From the IMG/VR virus record IMGVR_UViG_3300033067_000568, positions 1 through 37,805 of that record: a DNA stretch of 37,805 nt; one strand, given 5' to 3'. The notes below the pieces were generated by a model that saw nothing but the letters and a program-made list of their open reading frames with translations, made no database searches and had not been told where the DNA came from. Below, piece by piece: positions 1 through 30,496 of the stretch. The position numbers and the translations under genes are program-made. The stretch's first letter is position 1; each line of letters begins with the position of its first letter. This DNA is from a virus. Taxonomy: Duplodnaviria; Caudoviricetes.

Positions 1-114
1 AGCGAGACCCGTGCAGTTGGTCGAATTTGATCCGTCAGTCCTGACAAAATAATCCGCCCCCTGAACATCCAGAGCGATAAGCGAAAAGATGAGGAGAAGG
101 AGAACCTTCTTCAT
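1..114 (-). CDS. Partial (5' end only) signal-peptide-bearing protein, possibly a beta-helix/tailspike type
   Basis: Not in the ORF track. Read by hand: ATG at 114 overlaps the TAA of the upstream gene (TAATG). It translates MKKVLLLLIFSLIALDVQG|ADYFVRTDGSNSTNCTGLA and is open to the window edge. YFVRTDG..N...C.G resembles the start of secreted beta-helix proteins. Confidence 0.8.
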   Translation of the reverse strand, partial: MKKVLLLLIFSLIALDVQGADYFVRTDGSNSTNCTGLA

Positions 115-2417
115 TAATTATTGCTCCCACCCATCTGCGCCCAGACAGTTCCGTTCGTGCAAACAATGGCAGAGTCAGCGAGCCCAAGAACAACGTCAGC
201 CCCTCCGGCAGAGTAAAACAATGAATTATTATCAAGCGTTATGTTGTTTGCGCCCGTGTTGACCACGTTCATACAGCACCCGCTCAGGTCAGAACTTGGA
301 GCCGTGAACGTATTTGTCGTGTTTGTTGTTACTGCGCCTGCTGATGAGATGTCTTTGAATGTCCCACAAGCGTCTGCCGTGATCGTTGCCCCGGCAGTTA
401 TCGTCTGACTCGCTGGCGGTGACGGGTGTCCTAAACGTTCCGGGGTTCCGCTGTTGTCCCGGCAGAACTCGAACGCGCTGTCAGTCGAGTCGTACCAGAA
501 CTTACCTTGTTCACCAGTACAGTCGTCATCATCGACTGCAACATTGTTGATATCGATTTTACCTGTTAGGTTAGGAGTTGGTAATGTGGCGACACCTGCG
601 CTTGTGATTGCCGCCTGACCCGTCGAACCAACCGTCAAAAGCGCTCCTGCGGTGTATGTTCCAATTCCTACGTTCCCGGCTGTGCCGAGTATCGTTGGGC
701 CAGTCGGGCCTGCGATGGTCTGCGTATAGATGGTTCCTGTCGGGCCCAAGTCAAGCGAGCCGCGCGGTAGCAGAGTGCCGATGCCGACGTTTCCGGCGGA
801 TGTGATGATCATGATATTGCCGTCACCCGTGGCCGTGGATGAAACCATCAACGGCGCGCTGGAACCCTGCTTAACGATCTCAAGGGTTGTGGATGGAGTT
901 GTGGTCCCGATACCGACAATATCGGTCGTGGTGGATGTGTAGACGTTCGTTCCGCCGTCGTTCCAACCTCCAGAACCAACACTCAATCCATCTATCTGAG
1001 TTTGAATGTTTGAAGTTGTACCCTTAACATAGGATAATTCGGTCAACGATGGATATGTTGAGGTAGGCAAAGAACCGATGGTTGTTGTCGTAGGCCAGAA
1101 TGTGATTGTATTAGCTGTCCCGATGCCTACTGAACCACCTGAAATATTAGTCAATCCACTTCCGTCACCAACGAAAGCTGTCGCATTGACAGTACCAACA
1201 ACATTTAAAGCACTAACAGGATTAATGGTATTAATACCAACATTGCCACTCGATTTGACAATTAAATAATCCCCATCTGAACTTGCCGTTGAAGAAATCA
1301 TTAATGGCGTTGTTGTTGATTGCTTTACTAATTCTAAATTAGCACTTGGCCTATAAGTTCCAACGCCAACGTTCCCAGAAGTAATTACTAAATCATTGCT
1401 CCCCCAGAAAGAATAATTCCTTGTGCCGGAAGAAGTTGGTACTGCATAAAAACTAATACTATCCCCATTATGTGTGCCGACGAATGTTGATTGCATCCCA
1501 TAAAGTTTGCCAGTATAACTTCCATTTACAGCCTCTACCAAACCCAAAACTCCAGTATAACGATCAGCAGTTCCCGTTGCTTGAGTCCTTCCCTCAACTC
1601 CAGCAAGATTTAATTTACCAACAGATGTATCCTCAGCTAAACCTGCAACGCCAATAGAATGTCCTCCTCCTGTATTGGCTGCGCTTCCTGTTTGTTTTGC
1701 GTATCCTCTTAAAGACCAAACTACATCATTCGTCAAGTTTGGATATACATAAGACACATCTGCCGCAGAACCCACTATATATGTGCCAAAAGTTGTCGTA
1801 TCTGTTGGTGCTGTTGTTTTTCTTACATTGAAACGAGAACCTGCCCAAGTAGAAACTGTTGTTCCTATTCCGACCGTATCTGATGATGTTGTTGGACTAA
1901 TATTAGTCCCACCATCCGTCCATCCTCCAGAACCAACACTTAAACCATCTATCTGTGTCTGGATATTTGAAGTCGCGCCCTTGACGTAAGATAATTCTGT
2001 CAAAGTAGGATATGTTTCCGTCGGTAGCGAGCCGATGGTTGTCGTAGTCGGCCAGAACGTGATCGTGTTAGCGGTTCCGATGCCGACTGAACCTCCGGAG
2101 ATATTTGTAAGACCTGAACCATCCCCAACAAATGCAGTTGCACGGACTGTTCCGACCACTTGTAATTTTTGTGTCGGGCCAGTCGTTGCGATTCCGATAT
2201 TCCCACCGCCTTCGAATATGACCGCTGAATCATCGATTGTTGTTGATGCGGTATATTTTGGGATCGCTCCGACAACGCCTGGACTAACAGTTCCGATACC
2301 GACGCCACCTGAGCTAACAGTCTCGTAATAATCTAAACCATCAATGGCGGCCTTGTAATCGGCATATGATATGGAGCAAACAAAAAGAAGGACGATGAAT
2401 AAAAATAAATTTTTCAT
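114..2417 (-). CDS. Tail-fibre-like protein with GNVGIGT repeats and an N-terminal signal peptide (767 aa)
   Basis: Many G(N/S)VG(I/V)GT beta-repeat motifs, two TELSYVKGxTSNIQTQID fibre motifs and Gly/Thr/Ser-rich composition. SD AAGGAGG. N-terminus MKNLFLFIVLLFVCSISYA|D. Confidence 0.8.
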   Translation of the reverse strand: MKNLFLFIVLLFVCSISYADYKAAIDGLDYYETVSSGGVGIGTVSPGVVGAIPKYTASTTIDDSAVIFEGGGNIGIATTGPTQKLQVVGTVRATAFVGDGSGLTNISGGSVGIGTANTITFWPTTTTIGSLPTETYPTLTELSYVKGATSNIQTQIDGLSVGSGGWTDGGTNISPTTSSDTVGIGTTVSTWAGSRFNVRKTTAPTDTTTFGTYIVGSAADVSYVYPNLTNDVVWSLRGYAKQTGSAANTGGGHSIGVAGLAEDTSVGKLNLAGVEGRTQATGTADRYTGVLGLVEAVNGSYTGKLYGMQSTFVGTHNGDSISFYAVPTSSGTRNYSFWGSNDLVITSGNVGVGTYRPSANLELVKQSTTTPLMISSTASSDGDYLIVKSSGNVGINTINPVSALNVVGTVNATAFVGDGSGLTNISGGSVGIGTANTITFWPTTTTIGSLPTSTYPSLTELSYVKGTTSNIQTQIDGLSVGSGGWNDGGTNVYTSTTTDIVGIGTTTPSTTLEIVKQGSSAPLMVSSTATGDGNIMIITSAGNVGIGTLLPRGSLDLGPTGTIYTQTIAGPTGPTILGTAGNVGIGTYTAGALLTVGSTGQAAITSAGVATLPTPNLTGKIDINNVAVDDDDCTGEQGKFWYDSTDSAFEFCRDNSGTPERLGHPSPPASQTITAGATITADACGTFKDISSAGAVTTNTTNTFTAPSSDLSGCCMNVVNTGANNITLDNNSLFYSAGGADVVLGLADSAIVCTNGTVWAQMGGSNN
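945..1202 (-). repeat. Intragenic 86-codon repeat, C-terminal copy
   Basis: Encodes VVGTVNATAF...GGWNDGGTN; 81/86 aa identical to the copy at 1902-2159. Confidence 0.9.
1902..2159 (-). repeat. Intragenic 86-codon repeat, N-terminal copy
   Basis: Encodes VVGTVRATAF...GGWTDGGTN; 81/86 aa identical to the copy at 945-1202. Confidence 0.9.
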
Positions 2418-2425
2418 GTTCCTCC

Positions 2426-2746
2426 TTAAATGCCAGTATTAAAAACAGCGTTGAACGCGGCGTATGTTTCCGATGCCCTGTTCGTCCATGCCGTCGAATA
2501 TGCCGTTGTACCTTTGGTGTAGGTGTAATTTGTGATCCCTGCAGATATGGTGGCCTTGGCTATGAAATAATAGCCGTCTTGCCTGAGATAACCGTAATAC
2601 CGTGGCGATGCAGCGGCCTCGTCGATGTCAACGATCTTGTAGGCGTTGTATAGGTCGTTGAAATTCCGGGCCGTTCCAGGGTACATGGCGGCGTATGCAG
2701 GAACGCACAGAAAAACCGCGATAATAAAAAATAATATTTTCCGCAT
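2426..2746 (-). CDS. Small tail-fibre-associated protein with signal peptide (106 aa)
   Basis: SD AAGGAG. N-terminus MRKILFFIIAVFLCVPAYA|A. The YYG...W.NRAS.TY pattern recalls small phage structural proteins. Confidence 0.7.
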   Translation of the reverse strand: MRKILFFIIAVFLCVPAYAAMYPGTARNFNDLYNAYKIVDIDEAAASPRYYGYLRQDGYYFIAKATISAGITNYTYTKGTTAYSTAWTNRASETYAAFNAVFNTGI

Positions 2747-2757
2747 AGAGACTCCTT

Positions 2758-4989
2758 TTAATTACAAGTTCCGCATATTGAATTTGTCAATGATCCTGTG
2801 CAATATCCAAGTATTGACGTTCCGCCACTGATCGACTTAACGCAAACAAGAGTGCCTGCCGTGGTTGTTCCTATACCAACGCGCATGTTTCCTGTGCCAA
2901 TATCGAGCGTCGCTCCAGGGGCTGTTGAGCCGATGCCGAGGTTCCCACCAGACGTAAAACGCATGGCGGTCGATGCCGTTGCGCCGACTTGCAGTAATGA
3001 TGTCGGTGTTGTCGTCCCGACGCCGACGTTGCCTTCTGAAGTAATTCTTATGCGTTCCGTTGCTGAAGTTGATCCGATTGCAGCCGTCCTAAATTGTAAA
3101 TGAGATCCAGCTGCTGATGCGGTAAATGCTTCCGCAGCGATTGCTTGAATAACTGCACCGTAAACATACTGTGTCCCGGTCGTGCTATACGAACCGGCGA
3201 ATCCAAATGCACCAAGGCGTGAACCAGAATCTAACGCTGTATAATCATTTTGCTTTAGAATGATTGTTCCTCCAGATGTTGTACTGTCCGCAGCAGAAGA
3301 GACTATACTAAAATGGTCTCCGGTCGTCGGGTGATATTCCATCTGGTTCGTTTTAATGTTATGGAGCGAAACATTTTTTCCGCCTGATTTTGTAAACGTA
3401 GAACCGCCGCCGTTATCGAAAATTGAGTAATGTATTTCTCCGATAGCAAGGTTTGAGGCGTCAACCAAATTTGTGACATTGGCAAATGTTCCGGTATTAT
3501 GCTCGATGTCTAAATCATAAATCTTAAAATAGCTTGTTGTAGAGCCTGAGCTTGAAACTAAAACAGAATTTTGAACAGATTCAACTGCAACTTGAAATAC
3601 TTGGGCCGGATAACGACAATCATAAAAATTAAGCGCATTCACTCCTAAAACGATAAATGCACTCCAGATAAGTGAGTGTTCGCCTAAACGGACGCCGTTA
3701 TAGTAAGTTTTAATCTTTAAATTTTTCCAACCCCCTGAGACATTTCCAGCGAGCATATCCGGTAACTTTAAAGCAAAAGAATCGTTATGAGTAGGTAATG
3801 CAAGATTTGAAACAGGCCCTGTATCAAAAGTTACATTATCACCTTGCGCTTGGTCAGCGTCTTTTAACTCAAGCGCAGAATGCGTCGGGTCTTGTACAGT
3901 TCGGAAACGGATATTTTCAAATATGGCATTTATCCTTGCTATATTTCCTGTCCCGCCACCACCTGAGTCTGTAACAGACATGATTGCATTTTCACCATTC
4001 GTACCATATTTTGTTCCATAAATAATAGCACCATTATTTGCGGCAGCATTTGGAGCAGAAGATACTGGCCCCTTAATGTGGAATGTTGTAACTGGACTAG
4101 CAAAAGCAATGGCTGGGAATGCTATTTGAGAACCGCCAGACTGATCGAAAGCACCATTGACAATATAAGTTCCTTCAGGAAAAAATATTATCCCTGTTTT
4201 TCCAATGACAGAATCAGAACCTAATGCGGCAAATGCCGCACGAATGGCGGTTGTGTCGTCTGTACCGTAAGTGTACGAGCTTGACGAAACGGTATCGGTT
4301 GCGGCATTAGTTAGTTCAACACTTGTTGCACTGTTAATCGATGCGATGGTAGTAGTCAGGTCTAAGTTTGTTCCGGCAGCACTTTGAATGGTAATTACTT
4401 TTCCAATATCAGATGCAGCAAAAGAAGCTGAGGCACTTGTAAAAGTATTGTCAGCAGCCGTTATGGCTCCGTCAAACGCCTGAACACCATCTCCCTTTGC
4501 TCCATACTGCTTTACGTTAAAAACAACAGCACCATCTTCAGTCCCACCCGTAAAACTTCCATCAACAACGAATCCGTTTTCGGTCGTATGGGCAACTGTT
4601 TTACCGTTCTTGTTTTTGAATTCATCGACCGGAGTAATATATCCTGTTTCGTCCGTCATCGTGGTCACGATCGTCCCGCTTGTGTAGGCCGAACAATACA
4701 TACGATATGCGAGCTGATTGCTCCCGCGCGATTCAGCGAGAACCGTTCCCGAACCTGCACCCGTTCCGGTTGCTACGGTCTGCCAAGTCGAAACGCCGTC
4801 CGTAGAACTCTGCAACACCCAAGTCCCGACGAACGTTCCCGAAACTGAATAGGTGAACGAATCGCCAACCTTGACTGAGAGTACGCCCCCTGCCGTATTC
4901 GCTGCGGTGAAACTTTTGGAAACCGTGGCGGCGAACGCCTGACCGCACACCAAGAACGCCAAAATTAAACTCAAGATGAATTTTTTCAT
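2758..4989 (-). CDS. Tailspike/depolymerase-like protein (pectate-lyase-3-type beta-helix) with signal peptide (743 aa)
   Basis: FNVKQYGAKGDG ... TDDTTAIRAAF ... IIFFPEGTYIV signature and C-terminal GNVGVGT repeats. SD AAGGAG. N-terminus MKKFILSLILAFLVCGQAFA|A. Confidence 0.85.
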   Translation of the reverse strand: MKKFILSLILAFLVCGQAFAATVSKSFTAANTAGGVLSVKVGDSFTYSVSGTFVGTWVLQSSTDGVSTWQTVATGTGAGSGTVLAESRGSNQLAYRMYCSAYTSGTIVTTMTDETGYITPVDEFKNKNGKTVAHTTENGFVVDGSFTGGTEDGAVVFNVKQYGAKGDGVQAFDGAITAADNTFTSASASFAASDIGKVITIQSAAGTNLDLTTTIASINSATSVELTNAATDTVSSSSYTYGTDDTTAIRAAFAALGSDSVIGKTGIIFFPEGTYIVNGAFDQSGGSQIAFPAIAFASPVTTFHIKGPVSSAPNAAANNGAIIYGTKYGTNGENAIMSVTDSGGGGTGNIARINAIFENIRFRTVQDPTHSALELKDADQAQGDNVTFDTGPVSNLALPTHNDSFALKLPDMLAGNVSGGWKNLKIKTYYNGVRLGEHSLIWSAFIVLGVNALNFYDCRYPAQVFQVAVESVQNSVLVSSSGSTTSYFKIYDLDIEHNTGTFANVTNLVDASNLAIGEIHYSIFDNGGGSTFTKSGGKNVSLHNIKTNQMEYHPTTGDHFSIVSSAADSTTSGGTIILKQNDYTALDSGSRLGAFGFAGSYSTTGTQYVYGAVIQAIAAEAFTASAAGSHLQFRTAAIGSTSATERIRITSEGNVGVGTTTPTSLLQVGATASTAMRFTSGGNLGIGSTAPGATLDIGTGNMRVGIGTTTAGTLVCVKSISGGTSILGYCTGSLTNSICGTCN

Positions 4990-5002: not shown

Positions 5003-6433
5003 TTAAGATCCCACAGGCATAAATTGTAGGTCGGTTGATGGTGCTGTACCGAATGAATCTAGTTCAGCCCTGTAATATTCGTTTTTTCTGATTGGCACAC
5101 ACATGCCGTTTTTACGGTTCCCTTGTGTAGCTGAAAATGTGCTATTAACTCGCCATCCAGACGCATAACCGACAACGGTCGAAGGTGTTGCCGATGAGTC
5201 TGAATAAAATATTAAATCGCCGCCAGAACCGTCAGTTCCACTATTGAGCCAACCACAAAAAATACCGTCTGTGGTCGCTTGATAATTAGTGGCAAGTGAT
5301 TTCGAAACGCGCGCGCCGTACAGAGAACCCAGTGATGCGGTAGTATGCGTATGCCCAGGGTCTGCGCCGGATGTGACGTTTGCCCCTGTTATAGTTGTCG
5401 CCGCCACCGTCCCAACAACCTGCAATTTCTGCGTCGGCGACCATGTGCCAACGCCAACGTTCCCGTTCATAACAACGAGCCCGCCAACGGGCGCTGTCGT
5501 CCCAAGTCCGACGTTCCCTGAAAAACTGTTCACGCCCGTACCCGTCTGCGTATAACCACCCGTGGCTGTCGTTGCCACAACCGTTGTCGTACCTGTGGCC
5601 TGTAACGTGGTAAATTTACCGGCGTTCGGTGTCGTTGTGCCGATTCCGACGTTCGGGGCTCGTAAGTCCAAATACTGATATGCTGACGCCCCCTGATTAA
5701 CTTGGAGAACGTTCAGGCTGTTTGACACGATAGACGGCAAATTAACCGAAGCCGCGCTCGCTGCTGCTGCTGCTGCACTTGCCGCTGCTGCCGTTGCATT
5801 GGAAGCCGCGCTTGTGGCATTGGCTTGAGCTGCTGAAATAGCATCTGCGTCCGGACCGTCCGTGAAACCGTCGCCATCATCGTTAACGATTATCGAAGCC
5901 CCTGGATTGCCGACCAAACTGGCAGGTATCGCGGTGTCGAAATCGTCAGGGTCAGTCGTCTCGGAAAATTTAACGGACCGGTCAATTTCGTCCTGTTGTT
6001 GCTGATCTATCATGATTAGAGAATCAAACGTGTCCTCATGAGTTTCAGGATAGAACGCGCCCTGATTGCGAATGTCGGTGAGCTGTTTGATGGGCCGGAC
6101 GCGGCGAATGGTAAGGATGTAATTCGTTTTCAGATCCCCATCGCCGTCCAGCCAAGCCTGTGCGGAATTTACGAGAACGACGTTACCACCACTCGATGAA
6201 CCTACGCCAGTCACGGTATAATCCGTGGTTAATGTCAGCGTGGTTTCAACGTCGTTGGTATCTCGGACCGTGACCAAGAGATCGGTATTAGCAAATATTT
6301 TGTAGGAATAGGAATAGGTGTCGACCGCGCCGTTGCCGGTGTAATCCATACGGCTTGTCGTCGATGATATTGTCGCGTGAACGGGAGCGGTGAAGGTCAA
6401 CAAACACAAAATTAAGAGTAATCGAAACATCAT
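5003..6433 (-). CDS. Tail fibre protein with T7-type N-terminal anchor domain, preceded by a signal peptide (476 aa; start may be the second ATG at 6430)
   Basis: TISSTTSRMDYTGNG...YSYKIF...DLLV...LTLTTDYTVTG...LTIRR...QLTD..NQGAF.PETHED.FD.L.MIDQQ is the podovirus fibre adaptor domain. It is followed by an Ala-rich helix and GNVGLGT repeats. Confidence 0.88.
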   Translation of the reverse strand: MMFRLLLILCLLTFTAPVHATISSTTSRMDYTGNGAVDTYSYSYKIFANTDLLVTVRDTNDVETTLTLTTDYTVTGVGSSSGGNVVLVNSAQAWLDGDGDLKTNYILTIRRVRPIKQLTDIRNQGAFYPETHEDTFDSLIMIDQQQQDEIDRSVKFSETTDPDDFDTAIPASLVGNPGASIIVNDDGDGFTDGPDADAISAAQANATSAASNATAAAASAAAAAASAASVNLPSIVSNSLNVLQVNQGASAYQYLDLRAPNVGIGTTTPNAGKFTTLQATGTTTVVATTATGGYTQTGTGVNSFSGNVGLGTTAPVGGLVVMNGNVGVGTWSPTQKLQVVGTVAATTITGANVTSGADPGHTHTTASLGSLYGARVSKSLATNYQATTDGIFCGWLNSGTDGSGGDLIFYSDSSATPSTVVGYASGWRVNSTFSATQGNRKNGMCVPIRKNEYYRAELDSFGTAPSTDLQFMPVGS

Positions 6434-6448
6434 GCCTCCGCTATAAAT

Positions 6449-6492: not shown

Positions 6493-9400
6493 TTAAAAAT
6501 CAAGCCTAGTTCGTTTTTTCTTTTTCTTGTTATCTAAATATTGGCGTCCACCACCGAACCACCAGTAATAAAATTTACCTATCAGTGGAAGCCCACTCCA
6601 AACTTTATAGTTATCAACACCACGTTTTGACTGCAAATCTGAATATAAATCACCGATAACAGGAAATGGCGGAGCGATCGTAGACAATACTGCTGATCGC
6701 AAACCTTCACGTTTTGCCTTATAAATGGTGTATTTTGAAAAACCAATAAGACGAAGAATATTATCAATCACTAAATCAGAAGGCCGAATCGGACGGCCCA
6801 AAAGCAAATCTTTAATCACGTCTGTGCTTGCTCCCATAACTGCAAGAGCCATCGAGAAACGTACTAGGTCTATCATGGCTTTTTTCGGATTGTTTTTCAT
6901 CTCCATAAAAATTTTATTGTGATAAACGTCAAGCTGTTTGATTGAATACGATTTGAGCATATATGCGATACGCATATTACCGCCCTTCGCATAATACTCA
7001 GGCATTTCGGAAACGGTTACCGGCTGATAATCAAGCAACCGGCTGAACAATAAGTATTTGACGTTCTCGGTCGGATTCTCATTTTTAAGATCATCTAACG
7101 TCTGTGCAGATTCCTCACCGAAAACACGGTTCAATTCTTGAATCAACGCAGGATCGTTAGCGTTCGCCTGTTTCGACAACTTATTCATTGCGCCGTTGAT
7201 GAACGTCTCTTTTAGCAGAGAATCCATCTTGCTGAAACCAATAACACGAAATAACTTTTGAACCATATCCCCAATTTTAGATTGGTCTACAAATTCTTCT
7301 GCGATACGATCAAGGTGCAAATCGGATGTTTTGACGCCTTTGCCACTGATCGCTTTTGCAAGCCCAACACCCGACGAATAAATTCCGTTCTCGAACAACG
7401 ACGATGCTAAGTCATTAATTTGTGAAAGTGCCGAAACAGGAGAACCCATCGTATAAATATATGCGGTGTTCTTCCATAACGAAACCCATCCGCGCGTGCC
7501 ACGTTGCTTAAAACGGGCTTCCATTATTTTTTTAACCTCAGCCTCGTCTTTATGAGAAATCAATCCTTTTTCCATTAACTCATGCGTATATTTACCAATA
7601 CTTTTGTCAACGTCTTTTCCGTCCATTCCAAAGAATTTACGACTTTCGATTGCGTTATTCATCGACGAAACATACTCATGCAGTGCTGTCGTGCTATTTT
7701 TGTAAAATACGTTCATCTGTCCATCGACAGTTTCAATCTTCCGGGCCTTCGTGTTGCTCGGTCTTGACAGCCTGATTTCACCTTTGGCGAAACCGCGTAA
7801 TAGTTTATTGATGAACTCAACTTTTTCCTCATTGTTGAGAAGTTCGCCAATCCTGACTTGTTCCTCTTTGATAAGATTTTCGATCTGGCTCCACTGCTCA
7901 CCATTTCTAAGATAATTCATGAACGCTTCAGCGTCTATGACTCGGCGTGGAAAATAGAGGTCTAAATATCCGACATCCATACCGGCTTGGCGGGCGCGGA
8001 TATAAATTTTGTTCAACTCGTTCCGAACAGCTTCATATTCTTCTATGATTCCGTTACGTGATACGATTTCATCAACGACTTTATGATCGCTGTTTTTGAG
8101 CGCCAAATCCAAAGCCTTCGCATCCGCAGGATTCAATTCGCTGTATTTGTTTAAAAATGGTTCAATTATTTTCAGACTTTCTGAAGTTTCGGCTCGCACT
8201 AAATACTCAAATTTACGCATGGAATCACGAAGCGTTTTAGATATTTTCGCCAAGCGTGTTGAGAGAGGAACGAACGCGGCGTCAACCCATTCGTGGAAAT
8301 CTTTTGCGGTCTGACCATCAGCTCCAATTTTCGGAATATTTGGGATCACTATATGACCGGATTGATTCTTTAAAAAGTTTGTGCGAATAGCTTCAGGGTT
8401 TGTCTTCTGCGCCACTTCCCATTCGGCGGTGAGTTTTTCTCGGTAAGCTTTTCTTCTATAGCCTTCAATCTGATGGAATGGTTTTTCTTTAGCTGGTAAA
8501 TATGGTTGGGGATCATACCCCCATTCATGAATTGAATCCCCATTTGTAAAGATATCTCTGGCAGAGACAGTTTTACTAATAATCTTATATTCACCGTTTA
8601 ACTGGCTTTCTCCGTGTTCTTTTGCATAATTCCTATTGATAGAAACCCAATCGCCCGCTGTAAATGTACTTTTTGAATCCTTTGGGATGGCTCTATATAT
8701 TGTAATTACTTTATCTGGCTTATTTCTATATTGCTGCATTATGGAAACTGTTTGCATATCGTCAGGATGATTCTGTCCGTAATGACCATAATATTGAGCC
8801 GCTTTTCCACTATAAACATCATCCGGATAAGTTCCCGACAAGTCATAAAGAGGGCTTCCTGAATCTGCTGTTGGAGCGGTATGGTTTCCTCGATAATCAG
8901 CTTCTACCACACCGCTTTTATGCTTAATTTTTTCAACAGGAAAATATTCCTTAGCTTTAGCAGCCACATACTCCTCTGCGGTCTTGAAGTCTGCCGGATT
9001 TGTTGATTGCGGAATATCCTCTTTATACTGGTAGACAAATTCGTTATTCTTGGTCAAAAATCCTGGCTTGGCTTTGTCTTGGTCAAGATTCTCACGAACA
9101 AAAATATCTGCATGGTTTGCGTTCTTCTCCAAATCAAATTTTCCACCATACACTTTTCCGTCTTGAATGAACGCAGGGCCAATGATATTTTTAACTTTAT
9201 CTGGGTTTATAACCAAATCTTCGGTCGTCGCTTCAACCGATTCGTTTAATACCTTGATTTCTTTTCCTTCAAACATGGCCTTCTGGTTTTCGCTCGGCTG
9301 AATATTAATCGGTTCTTCGCCGCTATTAAACGGATTCACAACCGACCCACGTTCCTTCCCGCCGGGCAGGGCTTTTATGCTGTCCATGAACTCTGAGGCA

Positions 9401-11424
9401 ACGCCCAAATCATCGAGCGTCTGCGTTACCGTCTCGGCAGTTTTAACACCTGAACCTGTAATCATACCGATTGAGGCTGATACCGTGGCTTCTTTCCAGT
9501 TGATAGGGTCGCTCAACGCGATGTTTCCAACAACCGCCTGACTAAATTCCTGTGCGCCTTCCAATGTTCCGGCGGTCAAAACTTGTAGAATCTTCGGTCC
9601 TTTATCACCAAAAACACCGAATCGGTTTAACACAACGTCCTGCGGCAAATTACCCCAAAATGTCGCTGTGGCTGATAACGACGCGCTCTTTTCGCCGTAA
9701 CCGTTCTCGATGGCTTTCTTATATGTGTCACCGGAGTTGACAATTTCTTCCAAGATGGTCGATGTTCCGACACCGATCCAACGGGCGATAGACGGGGCAA
9801 TTTTGGCGATCTGAACACCCTTTGAAATGCCAAGCCCCGGAATAAAAAACGTAGACATCGAGCCAAGCCCTTCGTAAACTTGGTCAAGATACGTGGAATC
9901 TTCAACGGCATAAAAATCCTTGGCTGTCTTGCCCCATTCCTCAAACGCCTTACCGACTTCTTTCGCGCCAAGCCATTCAAGGCCGCTTCCGAAACTTTCA
10001 ACCGTTCCAGAAGCGCCACGCGCAATACCTTTTAACGCCCTCTGGATAGGTTCAAACGAAATCTCCCTCTCTCGCTTCGGGTCAAATACCTTGTCGTCCG
10101 GACCAAGCGGTGCTTGCGGATAGGTCTTATTATACTGCGCCCTTAAGACAGCTTCGGATGCTTCTTCAGGTTTTTTACCTTCGTCCAAATATGTCGTATA
10201 ATTGCTCAACGCATTAGCCAGCTCGCGCACATCGGATTCGTTGGCGATGTTCCAATTCTTGATTATCGGTATTTGTGTCCAAATTGAATTATCGCGGACG
10301 TTCTTTTGCTTGGTCAGAATATCCGTCAGACGGTTAATTTTTCGAGATTCTTGGCTGCTCATCACATTATCGGCCATCGAATCAACCAAAATTTGTTTGG
10401 CCTTAAATGCCTCAACACCGCTTAAAACTTCCTCTACAGCTTCAACGTATTTTTCAGCCGCCTCATTATCTTCTTTAAAACGGTCAATGTTATCTGACTG
10501 GGCCTTTGCCATGTCTTTCATCAGCTTGTTGCCCTTAACAACTCCTATGCCACCTTCTTCCGGCTTGTAGGACGCCGCTTGGATTTCTTCAATCGTCAAA
10601 TTACCGTTGATAAACTTATCGTTCAGGTCATATTCCAGATCGCGGCTGGAGTCTTTGAACATACCTTCAATTTTCTTCTGATCTTCTTGGCTTATTTTAT
10701 CTTTCTTAGAAGTCAAATATGCTGAGGCCGCCTGACCGTCCTTATTATCGAGCATAGCTGCAATAACACGAGCGTATGTCTGACTGGCACTCTTGGCGAT
10801 CTCACCTTCGATGACAGGAACGGGTATTCCATTGCGATAACCATAATTTATTAATTCTTGACGCTGTTTGAAAACCGACTGTTCAACCAAACCTTCCGGT
10901 CCGATATCCATATAATTCAACGCCGCTACGCCTTGGGCGTTCTGGATATATGCCTTGCTCAAGTCATCTTCATATTTCTTGGATTGTTCCGTAACGTGGT
11001 TCTGCGTCACGCGGTACAGGTCTGAACTTTTAACGGCTTTAATACGGTCAAACTTCGCCTTCTGCTGATCGTTCGAGAGTCCTTGACGTATCTTGTCCGT
11101 CCTCGTTTTCCATTCTTTTTCAACGTAATCCGGCGCGCCCATAGCGTTCTGACCAAGCCAATCCCTTTTCAGAGATGTCTGGATGTCCGTGAACACATTC
11201 GACATTTCAAGGTCAGAACCAGTGACACGCACATCATCTGCGTCCTGTTTCTGCTTGGCTATAATACCAGACACGTCGTTAACCAGCCCTTGCGCTGCAT
11301 GGGTGGTCTGCTGTACCTCTTGACCGCCACCGAACGCACTCAGAGGCTGTTCTGTATTAACGCGCGCCCCTGGTAACGGCGCTGTACGGACTGATGTTTC
11401 ACGACTGACTGGTACTGTAGGCAT
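6493..11424 (-). CDS. Large internal virion (DNA ejection/polyvalent-type) protein, 1643 aa, with an internal ART-like domain
   Basis: Lies between the tail tubular and fibre genes and is largely helical. MPTVP... N-terminus typical of podovirus ejection proteins; YFPRR and LKSYSIKQLD motifs in the C-terminal half. Confidence 0.75.
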   Translation of the reverse strand: MPTVPVSRETSVRTAPLPGARVNTEQPLSAFGGGQEVQQTTHAAQGLVNDVSGIIAKQKQDADDVRVTGSDLEMSNVFTDIQTSLKRDWLGQNAMGAPDYVEKEWKTRTDKIRQGLSNDQQKAKFDRIKAVKSSDLYRVTQNHVTEQSKKYEDDLSKAYIQNAQGVAALNYMDIGPEGLVEQSVFKQRQELINYGYRNGIPVPVIEGEIAKSASQTYARVIAAMLDNKDGQAASAYLTSKKDKISQEDQKKIEGMFKDSSRDLEYDLNDKFINGNLTIEEIQAASYKPEEGGIGVVKGNKLMKDMAKAQSDNIDRFKEDNEAAEKYVEAVEEVLSGVEAFKAKQILVDSMADNVMSSQESRKINRLTDILTKQKNVRDNSIWTQIPIIKNWNIANESDVRELANALSNYTTYLDEGKKPEEASEAVLRAQYNKTYPQAPLGPDDKVFDPKREREISFEPIQRALKGIARGASGTVESFGSGLEWLGAKEVGKAFEEWGKTAKDFYAVEDSTYLDQVYEGLGSMSTFFIPGLGISKGVQIAKIAPSIARWIGVGTSTILEEIVNSGDTYKKAIENGYGEKSASLSATATFWGNLPQDVVLNRFGVFGDKGPKILQVLTAGTLEGAQEFSQAVVGNIALSDPINWKEATVSASIGMITGSGVKTAETVTQTLDDLGVASEFMDSIKALPGGKERGSVVNPFNSGEEPINIQPSENQKAMFEGKEIKVLNESVEATTEDLVINPDKVKNIIGPAFIQDGKVYGGKFDLEKNANHADIFVRENLDQDKAKPGFLTKNNEFVYQYKEDIPQSTNPADFKTAEEYVAAKAKEYFPVEKIKHKSGVVEADYRGNHTAPTADSGSPLYDLSGTYPDDVYSGKAAQYYGHYGQNHPDDMQTVSIMQQYRNKPDKVITIYRAIPKDSKSTFTAGDWVSINRNYAKEHGESQLNGEYKIISKTVSARDIFTNGDSIHEWGYDPQPYLPAKEKPFHQIEGYRRKAYREKLTAEWEVAQKTNPEAIRTNFLKNQSGHIVIPNIPKIGADGQTAKDFHEWVDAAFVPLSTRLAKISKTLRDSMRKFEYLVRAETSESLKIIEPFLNKYSELNPADAKALDLALKNSDHKVVDEIVSRNGIIEEYEAVRNELNKIYIRARQAGMDVGYLDLYFPRRVIDAEAFMNYLRNGEQWSQIENLIKEEQVRIGELLNNEEKVEFINKLLRGFAKGEIRLSRPSNTKARKIETVDGQMNVFYKNSTTALHEYVSSMNNAIESRKFFGMDGKDVDKSIGKYTHELMEKGLISHKDEAEVKKIMEARFKQRGTRGWVSLWKNTAYIYTMGSPVSALSQINDLASSLFENGIYSSGVGLAKAISGKGVKTSDLHLDRIAEEFVDQSKIGDMVQKLFRVIGFSKMDSLLKETFINGAMNKLSKQANANDPALIQELNRVFGEESAQTLDDLKNENPTENVKYLLFSRLLDYQPVTVSEMPEYYAKGGNMRIAYMLKSYSIKQLDVYHNKIFMEMKNNPKKAMIDLVRFSMALAVMGASTDVIKDLLLGRPIRPSDLVIDNILRLIGFSKYTIYKAKREGLRSAVLSTIAPPFPVIGDLYSDLQSKRGVDNYKVWSGLPLIGKFYYWWFGGGRQYLDNKKKKKRTRLDF

Positions 11425-11743
11425 TGTGCAACTCCATATGATGTTTTCTACATAGCCATTGAACGGCTAAAGGCTTTGAATAATCTTCGTGATGTTTCTG
11501 TGCTTCTTCAGAGCATCCAAAAACTTCGCAAGGCTGCGGTATCAATTTTCCCCTACGCTGATAAACATTCGCATAAGAACGTGAACGCATTTTAAAACGA
11601 GCATCACCTTGCAATTTATGCGTTTTTCTCCAATGGCGCATATTTGCATTGTGGCAATCAACACACCAATGATGATTTTCGCGTTGAGGCCGAAGGTGAC
11701 ATTTTACACATGTTCCACGTTCAACATTCACATCCTGCATCAA
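11399..11743 (-). CDS. HNH-like endonuclease with Zn finger
   Basis: CxxC...CxxC N-terminus followed by RGKL..QPCE..C...HHEDYSKPLAVQWLCRKHH..LH. Confidence 0.7.
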   Translation of the reverse strand: MMQDVNVERGTCVKCHLRPQRENHHWCVDCHNANMRHWRKTHKLQGDARFKMRSRSYANVYQRRGKLIPQPCEVFGCSEEAQKHHEDYSKPLAVQWLCRKHHMELHNAYSTSQS

Positions 11744-12268: not shown

Positions 12269-14749
12269 TTATCCCCTAACTGGTATCATACCGACCGGCG
12301 TGATCGATAATATCGATGCCGGTATCGGGTCAACCTGCCTTATAAAACATCGTCCGCCCAAATTCCATGTGGCGTCGATATTAACTTCAACGGGCCCGGT
12401 CATTAAATTCACCGCGGAATCATAGCCTTCTGAATCACGCAATTTCGCCTCGTACAAATTCTGCAACGGGTCATCGTCATCATCGTCCGGGGGCTGTTGG
12501 CCAACGAATAAACCGCGTGTTTCTTCGACCATCAGAACGACTTTCCCGATTAATTTGCGTTTGTCAATCATCGTTTCGCCGTTCGTGGAATCCAAGTCTA
12601 GGGTCTGCAAATCGGAAATATACGGCAAACCAACGTGTATGACGCCATACGGCTTATCCAGTGTGATTGCGCCACCTGTGACCGTGACCGTGGTGTACGA
12701 CGAATTATTCGGGCTGGCAACAACGAACTCATCGGCGAATATCGCGACTTCCTTGCCCTCCAAATGTCCTAAGCCGGACAACTCATCAACCGCGTCTGTC
12801 CAAACCGCTGTGGCGGTACTCCTGAGCGTAACCGGAACGGTTTTATGTGGCGTTCCGGTAACGACTGTCGCGCTCGAATATGCACCGATCGTGAACCGTA
12901 TCAAATCTCCTGTGGCATCGTACAGAAATATCTGGTTTCCGACATCGCCGGCCACGAACTGCGAGGCTGAGGCGGTCAGTGTCAGCGTTTCGTCATACGC
13001 CCAAGTTGTGCCACCGGATAACGTCATGGTCGTGGCGGTTGTATTACGGCCATCATACGTCAACGCGGAATCCAGGAACACAGCATCAATAATATCCGCG
13101 ATCTTGCGCGTGTACTGGCGTTCGATATACCGAAGGTCCGTTCCGTTAATCGGGCGTTTGATGATCGCGTACATCGCGTCCTCAGCGCCCTCTGGAACAA
13201 CGCACAGACGTTCCGGCTCTCCGTCCGTATCGTGCCTATGCCACGCCCATACCTGATGTTCCTTGACATATGTCATTGCTATCAAACTTCGCTCATCTGT
13301 GACATTATCTTCCAAAATAACCCATATGACAGAATTTGGGTTTTCCTGATAAACTATGTCAACAACTGTAAATCCTTCGAACAAATGTGACGCAAATATG
13401 GTCAAATCGGAGTCCTTGTAACCTTCGATGGCATCCGACAACAGATCGCGAACAACATTCCCGCGCGCCTGAACATAAACGATGGAAGTTCCAACGATGA
13501 CCGGCGTGACGATCGAAGCACCGCGGTACGCCCGTGTTTTCGGATTTACTTGGCCAGGCCGTATAATTCCAGCGCTATCGCCTTCAGCATCCCATATCGA
13601 ACCGCTGGTGAACACGATCATACGCTCCAAATCGATGATATGCCTGACCTCGTTGTACTGCCGGCCTGGAACGGAGAACGTAACGGCGTCATCGTCCTGC
13701 AACGGTGTGCTGTAGGTAAAATTCTTAAAATTGGCTGACTTGCCCATCCAAATCTTTTCGGGATAATTTGTGGTGTTTCCGAACGTCAGACGTTGCTGAA
13801 CATAGGCAGAGACGGCAGGATAATTGCTCGAACCAGAAAATGGATCCCGCGCAGTTGGTGGGGTATCTTCAGCATCGGCTGTGATACCGTTATCAATAAA
13901 CGATGTCCCGATGGCAACGCCGATAAATCCATACACACCGTTGATTTTTTTATACACATTGTATTCCCCTGCCCCAGATGCCGCGGTCCATGATACCGTG
14001 ATCGGCGAACCACTCGAAGGTGTCGCGCTCGAACCCGTTGCCGAAGACTGCAAGCTCTCCTCGAACGTTTCGGAATTGACTGCTGTTATGACCCACTCCG
14101 TTACCGAACCAGCCGCGCCTGAATTGGTTGGTGATGTCGGTGCGGCCTGTGACGGAGCGAACACCACCAGCGATAACGTCCATGACGTATGACCGCTACG
14201 GCGTAATTCGCGCACCGCGTAACTCTTGTGCGTAAGCGTAACAACATCAAGCGACTGGTTGTATTTTATTGTCTCAAGGTTAGCTTCCAGATACGGGGTC
14301 GGTATTTCGTAGATACTACCCGTGAGGGGATACCAATACGTGGCATTTGGGGGCTGTTGGTTGGTGTGAGCCAAGATGCAATAATAATTTACACCCAATC
14401 GCGAAGCTAAATCTCCCACAACATACGCGGTGACGTTACTCCATGCAGTGACTCCAGAAACGGTTATCTGCACTCCATTCCGAATGAAACGGATATACTG
14501 ATCGCCGACCTCAAGAACATACGTTTGGTCAGAGTTGAACACAAACGGGATGAGAACCGAACGTTTGGTTGAATCCTTGGTTGAAACAATATATTTGAAA
14601 CCAGGACGGTTATCGGCACCGCCTTCTTTCTTGATAATAAAATTCCGTACGGTACGCATACCAGACTGATATTTAACCGTGTCGGTCCTTGCGTATAGAG
14701 CCGGGGCCAACTCACCAGATGCCAGTGATACCTGTTTTACTGCGGTCAT
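12269..14749 (-). CDS. Tail tubular protein B (nozzle)
   Basis: SLASGELAPAL.ARTD..KY, LIPFVF, YVLEVG..YIRF, YPAV...QQRL.F, QVWAWHRH and GLPY motifs. ATG at 14749 overlaps the upstream TGA. Confidence 0.92.
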   Translation of the reverse strand: MTAVKQVSLASGELAPALYARTDTVKYQSGMRTVRNFIIKKEGGADNRPGFKYIVSTKDSTKRSVLIPFVFNSDQTYVLEVGDQYIRFIRNGVQITVSGVTAWSNVTAYVVGDLASRLGVNYYCILAHTNQQPPNATYWYPLTGSIYEIPTPYLEANLETIKYNQSLDVVTLTHKSYAVRELRRSGHTSWTLSLVVFAPSQAAPTSPTNSGAAGSVTEWVITAVNSETFEESLQSSATGSSATPSSGSPITVSWTAASGAGEYNVYKKINGVYGFIGVAIGTSFIDNGITADAEDTPPTARDPFSGSSNYPAVSAYVQQRLTFGNTTNYPEKIWMGKSANFKNFTYSTPLQDDDAVTFSVPGRQYNEVRHIIDLERMIVFTSGSIWDAEGDSAGIIRPGQVNPKTRAYRGASIVTPVIVGTSIVYVQARGNVVRDLLSDAIEGYKDSDLTIFASHLFEGFTVVDIVYQENPNSVIWVILEDNVTDERSLIAMTYVKEHQVWAWHRHDTDGEPERLCVVPEGAEDAMYAIIKRPINGTDLRYIERQYTRKIADIIDAVFLDSALTYDGRNTTATTMTLSGGTTWAYDETLTLTASASQFVAGDVGNQIFLYDATGDLIRFTIGAYSSATVVTGTPHKTVPVTLRSTATAVWTDAVDELSGLGHLEGKEVAIFADEFVVASPNNSSYTTVTVTGGAITLDKPYGVIHVGLPYISDLQTLDLDSTNGETMIDKRKLIGKVVLMVEETRGLFVGQQPPDDDDDDPLQNLYEAKLRDSEGYDSAVNLMTGPVEVNIDATWNLGGRCFIRQVDPIPASILSITPVGMIPVRG

Positions 14750-15363
14750 CAATCCCTCGATCTGATGTAATCTGTGTCCGGTTCTTTTTCAGGCTGTTGC
14801 TCACCGATGGCGTTCGCCTTCGACTTCGATATGGACAGGAAATACGCGCGATAAGCACGTTCCCCAAGTTTGAACGGATCTCCGGCAGTTACACGCGGAG
14901 CGATATAAAATGCCAACAACAACGAAAATGCCATCACGAAGTCCGGCGCCCATTTGTCAGGGCTGTCAGACTTCTTGGAATACTCAAGCGTCGCGTCCTC
15001 CATGTCGGTCATTATCAGCGGACCGGTCGTATCTGATATTATTCGATACGGTATCCTAGAATCGTTGCTATCGTTACGCGTTCCGCTTGGTATTCGTATT
15101 GCCTTGGAACAGTCAGCTGGATAACGGTATGAGAACGCCCACTCAGCTCCGTCGACCTCACGCAAATCCTCGACCAACGCCAATGGCTCAATAACCGTCA
15201 GGTATGGATTCGGGAAATCACGCAAGGACTCCAACAGCGCATCGGAATAAAAGCGACGACACGCCTTAGCTTCGCCAGAACGTTCCGTTTCAACGTTGCC
15301 AATTTCCAACGATGAACCAAGGTGCGACAACGCCATGTTGCATATTCCGGTTTTATCTGCCAT
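14749..15363 (-). CDS. Tail tubular protein A (gatekeeper/adaptor)
   Basis: ICNMALSHLG, W.F.Y.YPADC and F..AF...LA..IA motifs; position upstream of tubular B. Confidence 0.88.
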   Translation of the reverse strand: MADKTGICNMALSHLGSSLEIGNVETERSGEAKACRRFYSDALLESLRDFPNPYLTVIEPLALVEDLREVDGAEWAFSYRYPADCSKAIRIPSGTRNDSNDSRIPYRIISDTTGPLIMTDMEDATLEYSKKSDSPDKWAPDFVMAFSLLLAFYIAPRVTAGDPFKLGERAYRAYFLSISKSKANAIGEQQPEKEPDTDYIRSRD

Positions 15364-21625: not shown

Positions 21626-23101
21626 TTAAATATTTTTCTCATCGTATGGGTTATAGTCATGTAACAATTTACCCTTATCCTTGTTGAACGGCAGTTCCGT
21701 CGTCGATGATGGCTGTTCTATCTCGGCGAACGTAAGCGCGAGCGCGTCGGCCAAATCCGGCGAAAATCCAAGACGTTCTTTTATCTGGTCTTTCGGTTCA
21801 AGTAGAAATTTCCCATTCTGATATGTGTATGTCGGCGCCGTCATCTCACGTTTCAATTCCGGTATCTTTGGGAGTTTACCGCCGTTCCTAACCCACTTCG
21901 CCATTTCCATCCAGCACTGCGAACGCATATTGTAATACCGCGGGTCCGTCGTTTTCGTGGACGCAAAGTTCACGCCCAATGACGAACTGTGTCCAGCAGC
22001 ACGCATGATGTCGATCGCGCCGTGTGCCCATCCGACAGTATCGTCGAAGAACTCGCGTTCAACATTTCCCCAAGTCATCTTTGCCGCCATAACTCGATTA
22101 GCAATATCGACGGACGGCTTATCTGTTGCCGGATTGTGACGCATGATCGCCGGTATGAACGAACACAAGCCTTGGCGTGGGAATATGACAGTCCTATCAT
22201 CTCCGAAACGAGCAACGTCGATGCCAAGGCGTTTCTGCGCCCAATCATAAACATCTGGGCGCATGACGCGGTTCATTGCGGATTCTATTTCCTCAAGACC
22301 TAACAGTTGATTAATAGATGCTGGCGGGAACAGACCTAAAATATAAGACATAACCCACGGGTTATCGCGTCCCCATTTCTTGATCTGGTCACGCGCCCAT
22401 TCGATGTCGATGCGAGGCGAGCGCTCAGGGTCATCAGGATCTCCGGTGATGGTCACAACATACCACGAATCCGCCTGGTCAACACACGCCACATACAAAA
22501 CTCCGTCAAGCGATGTCGGATTACCCGCAACGAGAATCCGTCCAAACTCAACGTCAGTTGATAAACCTTGTTCCGCTGAGCGCAGTATTGACGGAGGGAT
22601 GTCACCGCCTTCATCAATGAGATATAAAATATATCTGGAGTGCAAACCTGAGAGGGTTCGGCCAATGGTTTCTTTATCGGCAGACTTGGGATATGTCCTG
22701 GCCGACAACCACCATGACGTGGGGTGATCCTTGGCGAATATGCGTTCCTTGGTCCAGATGAACGCTTCGGAGAGGAATTTTGACCGCTGTTGCCACCGTG
22801 AAAACTCAGGCCAAAGATTATCCTTGAGGTTATCCGCCGTGACTGATACGCACGCGCCGACCGGATGATGCCCGCGCTCTGCATAACACGCGAGGAAATT
22901 CCAACCACACCATGCCAAGGCCGCGGTCTTACCTGGACCGGCGCATGCGCGCATCGCTATTCTTAGTTTTTTCTTATCGTTTGACGCGAAAGCCCTGAGA
23001 ACTTTGGATTGCCAAATATCGGGCTCAACATCAAAATTATCACGAACAAACAAAACAGGATCCGATCTCCATTGTCTTATTCGTTCGGCGGCTGGTGTCA
23101 T
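21626..23101 (-). CDS. terL: Terminase large subunit
   Basis: Walker A-like ACAGPGKT, Walker B YLIDEG, GNPT, nuclease GIDVARFGDD and SPDLADALALTFA. Start reassigned to the ATG at 23101 (ATGA overlap with the upstream stop). Confidence 0.93.
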   Translation of the reverse strand: MTPAAERIRQWRSDPVLFVRDNFDVEPDIWQSKVLRAFASNDKKKLRIAMRACAGPGKTAALAWCGWNFLACYAERGHHPVGACVSVTADNLKDNLWPEFSRWQQRSKFLSEAFIWTKERIFAKDHPTSWWLSARTYPKSADKETIGRTLSGLHSRYILYLIDEGGDIPPSILRSAEQGLSTDVEFGRILVAGNPTSLDGVLYVACVDQADSWYVVTITGDPDDPERSPRIDIEWARDQIKKWGRDNPWVMSYILGLFPPASINQLLGLEEIESAMNRVMRPDVYDWAQKRLGIDVARFGDDRTVIFPRQGLCSFIPAIMRHNPATDKPSVDIANRVMAAKMTWGNVEREFFDDTVGWAHGAIDIMRAAGHSSSLGVNFASTKTTDPRYYNMRSQCWMEMAKWVRNGGKLPKIPELKREMTAPTYTYQNGKFLLEPKDQIKERLGFSPDLADALALTFAEIEQPSSTTELPFNKDKGKLLHDYNPYDEKNI

Positions 23102-23796
23102 TTCAGCGTATCTTTGGTTTTCCCGAATACGAACATATTCCCGTAGCCGATGTGTCCGTAGTGAGTACAAGCGACTTTTCGGGTCGCCCAGATACTTGCG
23201 CCCATCTTGCGTGCGCGCCTTGAGAAATTCCAATCCTCTGGCACATTAACCGCAATGAAATTCCCAACGGCATCGCGCGAGATCATGTCCTCAAACTCGA
23301 ACCAGATATCGTTCACCCAGTCCTTGCGGATATCGATAAGCATTAATCCGGTATTGACAAGCAAATCCTTGTGAGTGAACGTCTCCGGATGATCGTTGTA
23401 AACCTCGTTCATCGTCAGCCGGCGCGGGCGCCAGTTTTTATCTGAGCCCTCGCATGGTTCATCTATCGCGGTTGAAGTAACACCAGATGATGTTTTGATC
23501 GGAATGACAGCGGATAAAACATCCGCTTCGACGCGTTCCATCTCATCGGATAATACATCAAGCCATCCAATGCCATGTGGCACAACGTCCGAATGAAGCA
23601 TGCAGAAATGCGTGGCGCCGTCCTTGCGCGCGTTCAATGCCGCGCAGAAAAGTTCATTGAAGTTCCTTGTGAGGCATGAATATGAATGAGTTCTAAAACC
23701 TTGAAGAATTCCTTTTGGTGAACATTGCAGAATCGCAGCTATCAAATCGGGGTTAACCTTGAGATCGCTGGTCGGTACTCCGAGAAATACTTTCAT
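23098..23796 (-). CDS. GT-A fold (GT2-like) glycosyltransferase
   Basis: KVFLGVP, RN, HFCMLHSDV (DxD equivalent), TGLMLI and EDWNFSRRARKMG.SIW....C.HYG motifs. GGAGG SD before the ATG at 23796. Confidence 0.8.
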   Translation of the reverse strand: MKVFLGVPTSDLKVNPDLIAAILQCSPKGILQGFRTHSYSCLTRNFNELFCAALNARKDGATHFCMLHSDVVPHGIGWLDVLSDEMERVEADVLSAVIPIKTSSGVTSTAIDEPCEGSDKNWRPRRLTMNEVYNDHPETFTHKDLLVNTGLMLIDIRKDWVNDIWFEFEDMISRDAVGNFIAVNVPEDWNFSRRARKMGASIWATRKVACTHYGHIGYGNMFVFGKTKDTLK

Positions 23797-24319
23797 CTTT
23801 TTTGCTACCTCCCACGAGGTCCTCAAGTGTTAGTTTGCCGGAAACCTCGTGCTTTTGTATGAACCGCCCAAGATCCTTTCCGAGCAGTTCAATAGATTTG
23901 AGTTTGTCGTAAAATTTAACCTTTTTCAAATAGCCTGTGTGTACTTTTTTACTGTCTTCGTAATCAAACTCCTCAGTCACATCCAATCCCGCGATCGCAC
24001 GGGCGACATCCGCCGGCCATTTATCCGGCGGCAATAACGCATGGTTATCGTCAAATATCTTTCGCACGTCAACAAACGCCAATGACTTCAGCTCACCCAA
24101 CAGCCGTTGTACAATCCACTCGTTCCTGGCATCAAGCGCCGCTTGGTAACGCTTCGTTCGTTCAACATCATCGTAGATCCATCGCAATATCAGAACATAG
24201 CTGCAATTCCACAGTTCGCACAGGTCAATTAAACTGCCGCCATTCGCAATGTTATCAAAAATCGTATCAATTGTCTTGGGATCGTTTATCTTTTCTGTGG
24301 TGTTATCGAATATGTTCAT
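23753..24319 (-). CDS. terS: Terminase small subunit
   Basis: IANG.SL..LC......ILRWI.....RY..A HTH, LAF.DVRKIFD and KVKFYDKLKSIELLGK.LG.F motifs; upstream of TerL. Confidence 0.85.
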   Translation of the reverse strand: MNIFDNTTEKINDPKTIDTIFDNIANGGSLIDLCELWNCSYVLILRWIYDDVERTKRYQAALDARNEWIVQRLLGELKSLAFVDVRKIFDDNHALLPPDKWPADVARAIAGLDVTEEFDYEDSKKVHTGYLKKVKFYDKLKSIELLGKDLGRFIQKHEVSGKLTLEDLVGGSKKDESISRSTDQRSQG

Positions 24320-30364: not shown

Positions 30365-30496
30365 ATGATGACAGTCAATTTGAGAAACGGAATACCGATA
30401 GTAGAGGTCGCTGAACCCACCCCCATTGACCCTAAACTTGCGCGTCAAAAGCTCGACTGTATCAGAGCCAAGGAACAGGAGAGTGACGCCACATGA
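30365..30496 (+). CDS. Hypothetical protein (43 aa)
   Basis: SD AAGGA before the ATG at 30365; ATGA overlap with the next gene. Confidence 0.55.
   Translation: MMTVNLRNGIPIVEVAEPTPIDPKLARQKLDCIRAKEQESDAT

Follow-up and report, generated by a model that had tools for sequence, protein, structure and literature searches.

A tail fibre gene with a leader in front of its virion anchor, and a likely two-compartment route of podovirus assembly

Introduction

Why would a tailed phage place what looks like a signal peptide directly in front of the domain that is expected to join its fibre to the tail? The accepted view is that a tailed-phage particle is complete before the cell lyses, its assembly taking place in the cytoplasm, and T7 fibres are made in the cytoplasm. 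The stretch of DNA analysed here in full, which we call the window, is a whole viral contig of 37,805 nucleotides (IMG/VR record IMGVR_UViG_3300033067_000568), incomplete at 37.8 kb given that relatives reach 40-48 kb. A preliminary description of its letters had proposed that a signal peptide is joined precisely to a canonical T7-type fibre anchor and that the exported protein is still a virion part. Our analysis confirms the leader, and we argue that export of the fibre by the host Sec system is likely.

Results

The phage and its fibre gene

Pfam and PHROG scans of 30 window proteins indicate a terminase, portal (PF12236), scaffold, capsid (PF20911) and Bbp16 (PF21190), then an adaptor, a nozzle, a T7-gp14-like protein, a 1,643-aa ejection protein and the fibre, and by this gene content the phage is a BPP-1/Carin-1-like podovirus. 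The head and tail-hub gene set and its order are those of BPP-1-like podoviruses, and the difference from them lies in the leader-bearing fibre module; no reverse transcriptase was found among the 30 proteins with either profile set. The fibre gene stands at its canonical position in the late operon, 3' of the ejection protein genes, and no promoter was found before it.

Other features of the contig may be recorded here. The ejection protein (6493-11424, minus strand) carries at residues 839-974 an inserted domain that matches phrog_2579 (E 2.6e-38), and the orthologue in the relative L021 differs in this region. An unannotated ORF between the two terminase genes (23098-23826, minus strand), which we take from its appearance to be a glycosyltransferase, has no family match in the Pfam and PHROG scans. 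A SpoU/TrmH RNA methylase gene lies at 37100-37543 (plus strand).

The fibre ORF (6433..5003, minus strand, 476 aa) begins MMFRLLLILCLLTFTAPVHA and continues TISSTTSRMDYTGNG; ahead of TISSTTSRMDYTGNG stand a basic residue, a stretch of hydrophobic residues and the tripeptide VHA. Its parts are the following.

6435..6439, minus strand: Shine-Dalgarno GGAGG, separated from the second ATG (6430) by 4 nt and from the first (6433) by 1 nt
6374..6430, minus strand: predicted Sec/SPI signal peptide of 19 aa, ending VHA before Thr21, called by inspection and from homologues; putative export and cleavage
5954..6373, minus strand: virion-anchor domain, residues 21-160, a beta-sandwich and trimerising helix of the Carin-1 Dpo31/Dpo36 D1 type
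6347..6349, minus strand: internal Met29, conceivable as a second start but unlikely to be one, with no Shine-Dalgarno upstream
5753..5848, minus strand: Ala-rich helix, residues 196-227, likely a coiled-coil shaft by the secondary structure of the model
5399..5656, minus strand: GxGTxxP-type repeats, approximately residues 260-345, likely a beta-rich shaft by sequence (pLDDT <50)
5006..5326, minus strand: C-terminal beta-sandwich tip, residues 370-476, variable between relatives, with Cys393 and Cys445

Since three relatives (L021-L023) have GGAGG, a 4-nt gap and a single ATG, translation probably starts at the second ATG. The leader, put at 19-20 aa in the preliminary description, is then 19 aa long. 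The same description held that no start lies at Thr21 itself, and the codon preceding it is indeed GCG.

The AlphaFold model of the full-length fibre is poor past the anchor, with a mean pLDDT of 49.9 and confidence only at residues ~26-111. A fold search with the tip domain gave no match at Z≥8; the best, at Z 7.7, was to a common jelly-roll type fold, with no family named.

The anchor domain

What kind of anchor is it? Fourteen PHROG tail or tail-fibre families match, most of them aligning from residue 21 at profile position 2, with phrog_1640 the best (E 9.6e-40). The sole PDB sequence match is to Carin-1 Dpo31/Dpo36 (E 6e-26), and Foldseek on the anchor model places 8ck1_B first (E 4e-9), followed by the N-domains of T7 gp17 (PDB 7BOZ and 7EY9; E 2e-3 to 8e-3, probability 0.99-1.0, 16-17% identity), which share the fold. 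T7 gp17 also resembles the window fibre in its gene position after internal virion proteins. No Pfam family matches residues 21-178 even at E≤1 and none relevant matches the whole protein, the T7 fibre families included. Thus the name T7-type, as far as models can tell, holds by fold and not by family HMM, and the HMM match that the preliminary description had set as its test failed, although PHROG, the PDB sequence match and the fold still establish the domain. The nearest solved structure, by sequence comparison, is Carin-1.

Carin-1, a Cobetia phage (PDB 8CK1, 28LX), has an anchor, an adaptor and a nozzle all homologous to those of the window, the anchors being 43% identical in the fold alignment. 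In the accessible text of the Carin-1 paper, the D1 domain fastens the spike to the tail, and neither "signal peptide" nor "disulfide" is mentioned there (PMC13317679). The match begins at residue 3 of the Carin-1 chain, which hence has no leader, whereas the window anchor stands behind 19 residues; the distal parts are unrelated, and in the window a row of leader-bearing genes comes next. The hub partners of the window are as follows.

14749..15363, minus strand: tail adaptor/connector, homologue of the Carin-1 connector (8ck1_E, E 4.9e-15), no leader; predicted docking partner of the fibre
12269..14752, minus strand: tail nozzle, homologue of the Carin-1 nozzle (8ck1_A, E 5e-150), no leader

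The fibre therefore has what a Carin-1/T7-type fibre has, an anchor with a trimerising helix at the expected gene position together with a cognate adaptor and nozzle, and it departs from that type in not starting translation at the anchor (Met-Thr/Ser) as a cytoplasmic protein does. Of the 53 columns with ≥90% conservation across 88 leader-less homologues, 52 are retained in the anchor. Searched in all six frames with an anchor profile, the window has a single anchor-domain gene, and L021, L022, L057 and L070 have one apiece; the stretch that is missing from the contig could hold a further anchor gene with no leader. Because the anchor is intact, is the only one on the contig and comes with a Carin-1-type adaptor and nozzle encoded upstream, a role in the virion is far more probable than the capture of an adhesin from the host. 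On this point the preliminary description finds support, and the tail binding that it had asserted is predicted from the intact anchor and its cognate partners. A complex prediction with two adaptors and three anchor domains scored 0.00, and we count it neither for nor against docking.

The leader is in register and under selection

Two criteria served to call the leader, the n/h/c pattern and the (-3,-1) rule; we applied them by eye and with a home-made hydrophobicity heuristic that flags 16/16 leader anchors, 0/88 leader-less anchors and, as false positives, 6/120 adaptors. It has a basic n-region, a hydrophobic h-region and small residues at -3 and -1, with no lipobox Cys at +1 and no twin Arg, as expected for Sec/SPI.

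An alignment of homologues, proposed in the preliminary description as the way to see an extension, shows it. Among the 120 best homologues, 103 begin with a Met at or within one residue of Thr and 15 carry a hydrophobic leader that ends in register at Thr, a fraction that overstates the frequency of leaders since the ranking included the leader; one of the others is called from the internal Met, and one bears an extension of 44 residues in which no clear leader can be recognised. Together with the PHROG alignments from residue 21, these 15 bear out the claim that the leader stands exactly in front of an intact anchor. In the 15 leader forms compared residue by residue, the leaders are diverse and 18-32 aa long, and the residue before Thr is A in 13 and otherwise S or G. 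An exhaustive search added 90 proteins, three of them with leaders. By locus, a leader precedes the anchor in 4 of the 108 classified (L021, L022, L023 and L057), in none of the 19 IMG/VR loci classified and in none of the 9 loci of the GTDB scan, and the leader-anchor junction pattern has no match in IMG/VR. Cultured phages gave only two weak matches, to Pelagibacter phages.

Could the leader be an artefact of start calling, or a neutral remnant? That 103 of the best homologues lack one is what this explanation would expect. It meets the absence of a start codon at Thr21, the good Shine-Dalgarno before the leader, and a pattern kept in divergent leaders. Moreover, a 98%-identical protein (P0001) occurs on another contig, and the 18 leader codons differ from those of L021 and L022, which are identical there, by 10 synonymous and 4 non-synonymous changes; this copy and the synonymous excess argue that the leader is neither chance nor an assembly artefact. 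The corresponding dS is 2.49, near saturation, with dN 0.107 (dN/dS about 0.04); the anchor gives dS 1.66 with dN 0.093 and dS 1.17 with dN 0.064 (dN/dS about 0.06). Purifying selection is strong on the leader and on the anchor, and we regard the artefact or remnant explanation as highly improbable and largely refuted.

Anchors at 70-77% identity occur both with and without the leader. Quick trees need 7 and 6 label changes, at least two of them forced by starred branches on the latter tree, and an AU test does not reject a single leader clade (p 0.376); the leader was possibly gained more than once. The adaptor of the window defines a tight group (P0131-P0154, 62-100% identity), and when proteins are paired solely by equal contig size, seven leader fibres, on contigs of 45,396, 39,102, 30,612, 45,157, 48,212, 18,114 and 11,517 nt, go with adaptors that belong to this group or to its cluster members, and four leader-less fibres, paired on the same footing, with adaptors at 52-57% identity.

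Two relatives may be mentioned in this regard. The fibre of a distant phage (L057:9956-11569), with an anchor at 56% identity, has its own 32-residue leader on the same anchor, possibly an independent gain; lipoprotein-like and outer-membrane-like genes and an integrase-like ORF come after it. L021 and L022 are identical over the first 19 codons and 25 nt upstream and have an anchor dS of 0.59, a pattern that suggests recombination close to the leader/anchor junction.

A row of leader-bearing genes, and mostly paired cysteines

The fibre is the first of five consecutive leader-bearing ORFs. In the window no leader was found on the adaptor, nozzle, portal, capsid or other head and hub proteins. 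The four ORFs that follow the fibre are these.

2758..4989, minus strand: spike-like protein, 743 aa, leader, pectate-lyase-like region, 6 Cys (Pfam/PHROG, sequence)
2426..2746, minus strand: 106-aa protein, leader, no Cys, function unassigned (sequence)
114..2417, minus strand: fibre-like repeat protein, 767 aa, leader, 6 Cys (sequence)
1..114, minus strand: fifth leader-bearing ORF, interrupted by the contig end (sequence)

The 106-aa protein, for which a family match was not found, sits between two large fibre genes and is a candidate connector or chaperone; L021 encodes a protein of similar size at 11308-11628. L021 has six leader genes in a row. The five that lie 3' of its fibre (L021:11308-20508) include two propeller proteins of BNR/Vps10-like type and one protein that is rich in Cys and beta-helix-like, and a small holin-like ORF comes next.

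Cysteine counts differ between the two kinds of fibre. Mature leader fibres have an even number in 11 cases, none in 4 and an odd number in 1 (n=16), as against 25, 16 and 62 for leader-less fibres (n=103), a difference with Fisher p 4e-5; 11 even of 12 compared with one half gives p 0.003, and kinship inflates both values. The leader-less homologues (P0014-P0120) have an odd bias of their own, mostly with 1 or 3 Cys. In the window fibre the sole two cysteines of the mature chain are 393 and 445, in the tip, and both are invariant in three relatives at 42-44% identity. Among leader-flagged homologues of the 767-aa neighbour, 69 have even counts, 4 none and 15 odd (n=88). Beyond the main clade of fibres the even counts are not consistently kept: the further three leader forms, which are more distant, contain 6, 3 and 3 Cys. 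No Cys occurs in the anchor, and 4 of the 16 leader fibres have none at all; disulfides thus give no reason for exporting the anchor.

An arrangement that looks intermediate survives among the relatives. We considered non-redundant loci with a leader-less anchor at ≥50% identity and ≥900 nt downstream, which left 30 of 42 rows once 3 leader forms and 9 rows with too little room were set aside. At 10 of the 30 (L003, L006, L013, L017, L026, L033, L039, L041, L042 and L044) a long leader-bearing gene lies directly behind the anchor gene. The anchor proteins there are shorter, 212-551 aa versus 331-1,135 aa (p 4e-4), and among the leader-bearing partners the 9 with complete genes all show an even Cys count or none, with up to 16 Cys. 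These loci likely encode a split fibre, in which a short cytoplasmic adaptor fibre would carry an exported binding half. The likely evolutionary route would then be that a short anchor, still cytoplasmic, at first carried an exported partner, and that the anchor itself came to be exported later.

Virion part or surface factor?

Who is the host, and could the exported proteins serve there instead? The 767-aa neighbour has its best named homologue in a Candidatus Omnitrophica MAG and others in Margulisiibacteriota and Elusimicrobiota; cluster look-ups gave one Omnitrophota name among the 30 proteins asked, and atlas searches only viral clusters or low-scoring rows. This is a weak hint at an Omnitrophota host. 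The window also has a phage-borne gene for a PEP-CTERM protein with a leader (33771-34352, plus strand), likely a host-surface protein, and its presence presumably points to a diderm host.

Exported phage proteins might act as periplasmic or surface factors (receptor masking, superinfection exclusion, decoys, capsule remodelling), the anchor serving only to trimerise. The repeat regions do resemble exported bacterial fibres, with the Omnitrophica homologue of the 767-aa neighbour as an instance, the phage carries a PEP-CTERM cell-surface gene, and the missing part of the contig leaves room for another fibre. There is also a precedent in the MAT fibres of Bdellovibrio, which, in the accessible text of PMC10769870, have signal peptides in 21 of 21 cases and act on the cell surface. 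These are trimeric, phage-like and folded outside the cytoplasm, just as we propose for the window fibre, but they are cell adhesins encoded by chromosomal genes of a predator, with their own MAT domain of ~130 aa after the leader (PMC10769870, same text). The window protein has a phage anchor after its leader and lies in a phage late operon, and is set apart from MATs by domain and by context. A surface role would moreover leave the phage without an identified fibre, in spite of a gene at the canonical fibre position that is the only anchor gene found, and would have to account for an anchor that keeps 52 of 53 conserved columns at a dN/dS of about 0.06. We consider such a role quite improbable.

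Discussion

Our analysis points to a virion built in two compartments, which we regard as probable: head, adaptor, nozzle and ejection proteins would be made in the cytoplasm, the receptor-binding apparatus, anchor included, would reach the periplasm through Sec and mature there with disulfides, and the two would be joined at lysis; relatives would preserve its stepwise origin, possibly one that took place more than once. For the fibre itself the likely course, with export, cleavage and docking proposed from its sequence, is periplasmic folding followed by docking on fibre-less particles at lysis. Host Sec would export the fibre and signal peptidase I would cut at Thr21, which would leave the same N-terminus that Met removal leaves in ordinary relatives. 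The tip would form its disulfide and fibre trimers would build up in the periplasm; in the cytoplasm, particles that lack fibres would meanwhile be assembled. Lysis would open the inner membrane and mix both pools, and the fibre would dock on the adaptor and nozzle.

How could docking be completed in the time that lysis allows? Before the outer membrane gives way, holins make micron-scale openings in the inner one, and in lambda ~19 s pass from depolarisation to explosive lysis, according to the accessible text of bioRxiv 10.1101/2023.09.08.556860. By analogy, a lambda-like interval would be a short docking time, and it is the weak point of the proposed mechanism. Late addition of fibres is nevertheless biochemically plausible by analogy with other phages: in P22, tailspikes are added to purified heads in vitro within 30 min (accessible part of bioRxiv 10.1101/2021.09.20.461090), and in T4, particles that lack their long fibres can take them up (PMC3004832, in the part available). 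The former source also has a P22-type tailspike with a 43-residue N-terminal extension that still binds heads; that spike has a different anchor fold, and its binding despite the extension implies that an exact N-terminus need not be required.

The timing problem would vanish if a cytoplasmic form, translated from Met29 or left as unexported precursor, were the one on the virion, with the exported form a by-product or in a second role. An internal start was the objection that the preliminary description raised against itself. It is unlikely in that no Shine-Dalgarno precedes Met29 in the window or in L021-L023, yet Met29 is enriched, occurring in 14 of 16 leader forms versus 3 of 88 leader-less ones, and two database proteins (P0011 and P0270) are called from its position. 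The product would lack S24 and R28, each ≥90% conserved in 104 homologues; Met29 is absent in six leader forms (P0013, P0091, P0262, P0318, P0326 and L057); and since three other positions are similarly clade-specific, its enrichment may be plain ancestry. A dual start would also leave the downstream leader genes and the paired cysteines unexplained, and we consider it unlikely on the whole.

Alternatively, particles might reach the periplasm or another membrane-bounded compartment before lysis, through an unusual envelope or staged release, and receive the fibre there, which would likewise solve the short time window. A 132-aa lysozyme/glucosaminidase-like protein with a hydrophobic leader is encoded at 30493-30891 (plus strand), at the start of the rightward (recombination) arm, outside the late operon and not within a lysis cassette; it belongs to a family of viral clusters without a Pfam name. 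Its location, the lack of a holin or spanin in the Pfam and PHROG scans of the window, and the weak hint of an Omnitrophota host could be cited for such staging, but the lysis genes are probably in the missing part of the contig and the host assignment is tentative. No machine is known to carry a podovirus capsid across an intact inner membrane, and we hold this route to be very unlikely.

For virion proteins with leaders there are partial precedents. Inovirus pIII and pVIII are virion proteins made with leaders; inoviruses, which lack any head or tail built beforehand, are put together in the membrane as they are extruded. Closer is the cultured tailed phage phi18:3 of Cellulophaga, in which three consecutive proteins (gp085-gp087, GenBank KC821620) have leader-like N-termini and are annotated "structural protein" from MS/MS in the GenBank record, which makes no comment on leaders; these would be leader-bearing virion proteins of the sort proposed for the window, the comparison resting on leaders and annotation. 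We found no description of Sec-exported tailed-phage fibres in the openly available literature searched, nor in the accessible parts of PMC12309495, PMC13730344, PMC5723332 and an Omnitrophota preprint.

What would the phage gain? The likely pay-off is that the phage could use adhesin and spike modules which are derived from hosts, hold disulfide bonds and cannot fold inside the cytoplasm. The particle is of a known kind; its route of fibre biogenesis, as read from the genes, would be new. If the fibre is exported and added later, virion maturation would be coupled to lysis, the host Sec and Dsb systems would be phage dependency factors, and phages could borrow disulfide-bonded bacterial adhesin modules as receptor binders. 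The family offers an unusually clean test case, with anchors 70-77% identical with and without a leader, a solved tail homologue (8CK1) and a surviving apparent intermediate. For annotators, exported fibre-like genes on phage contigs may thus be virion parts.
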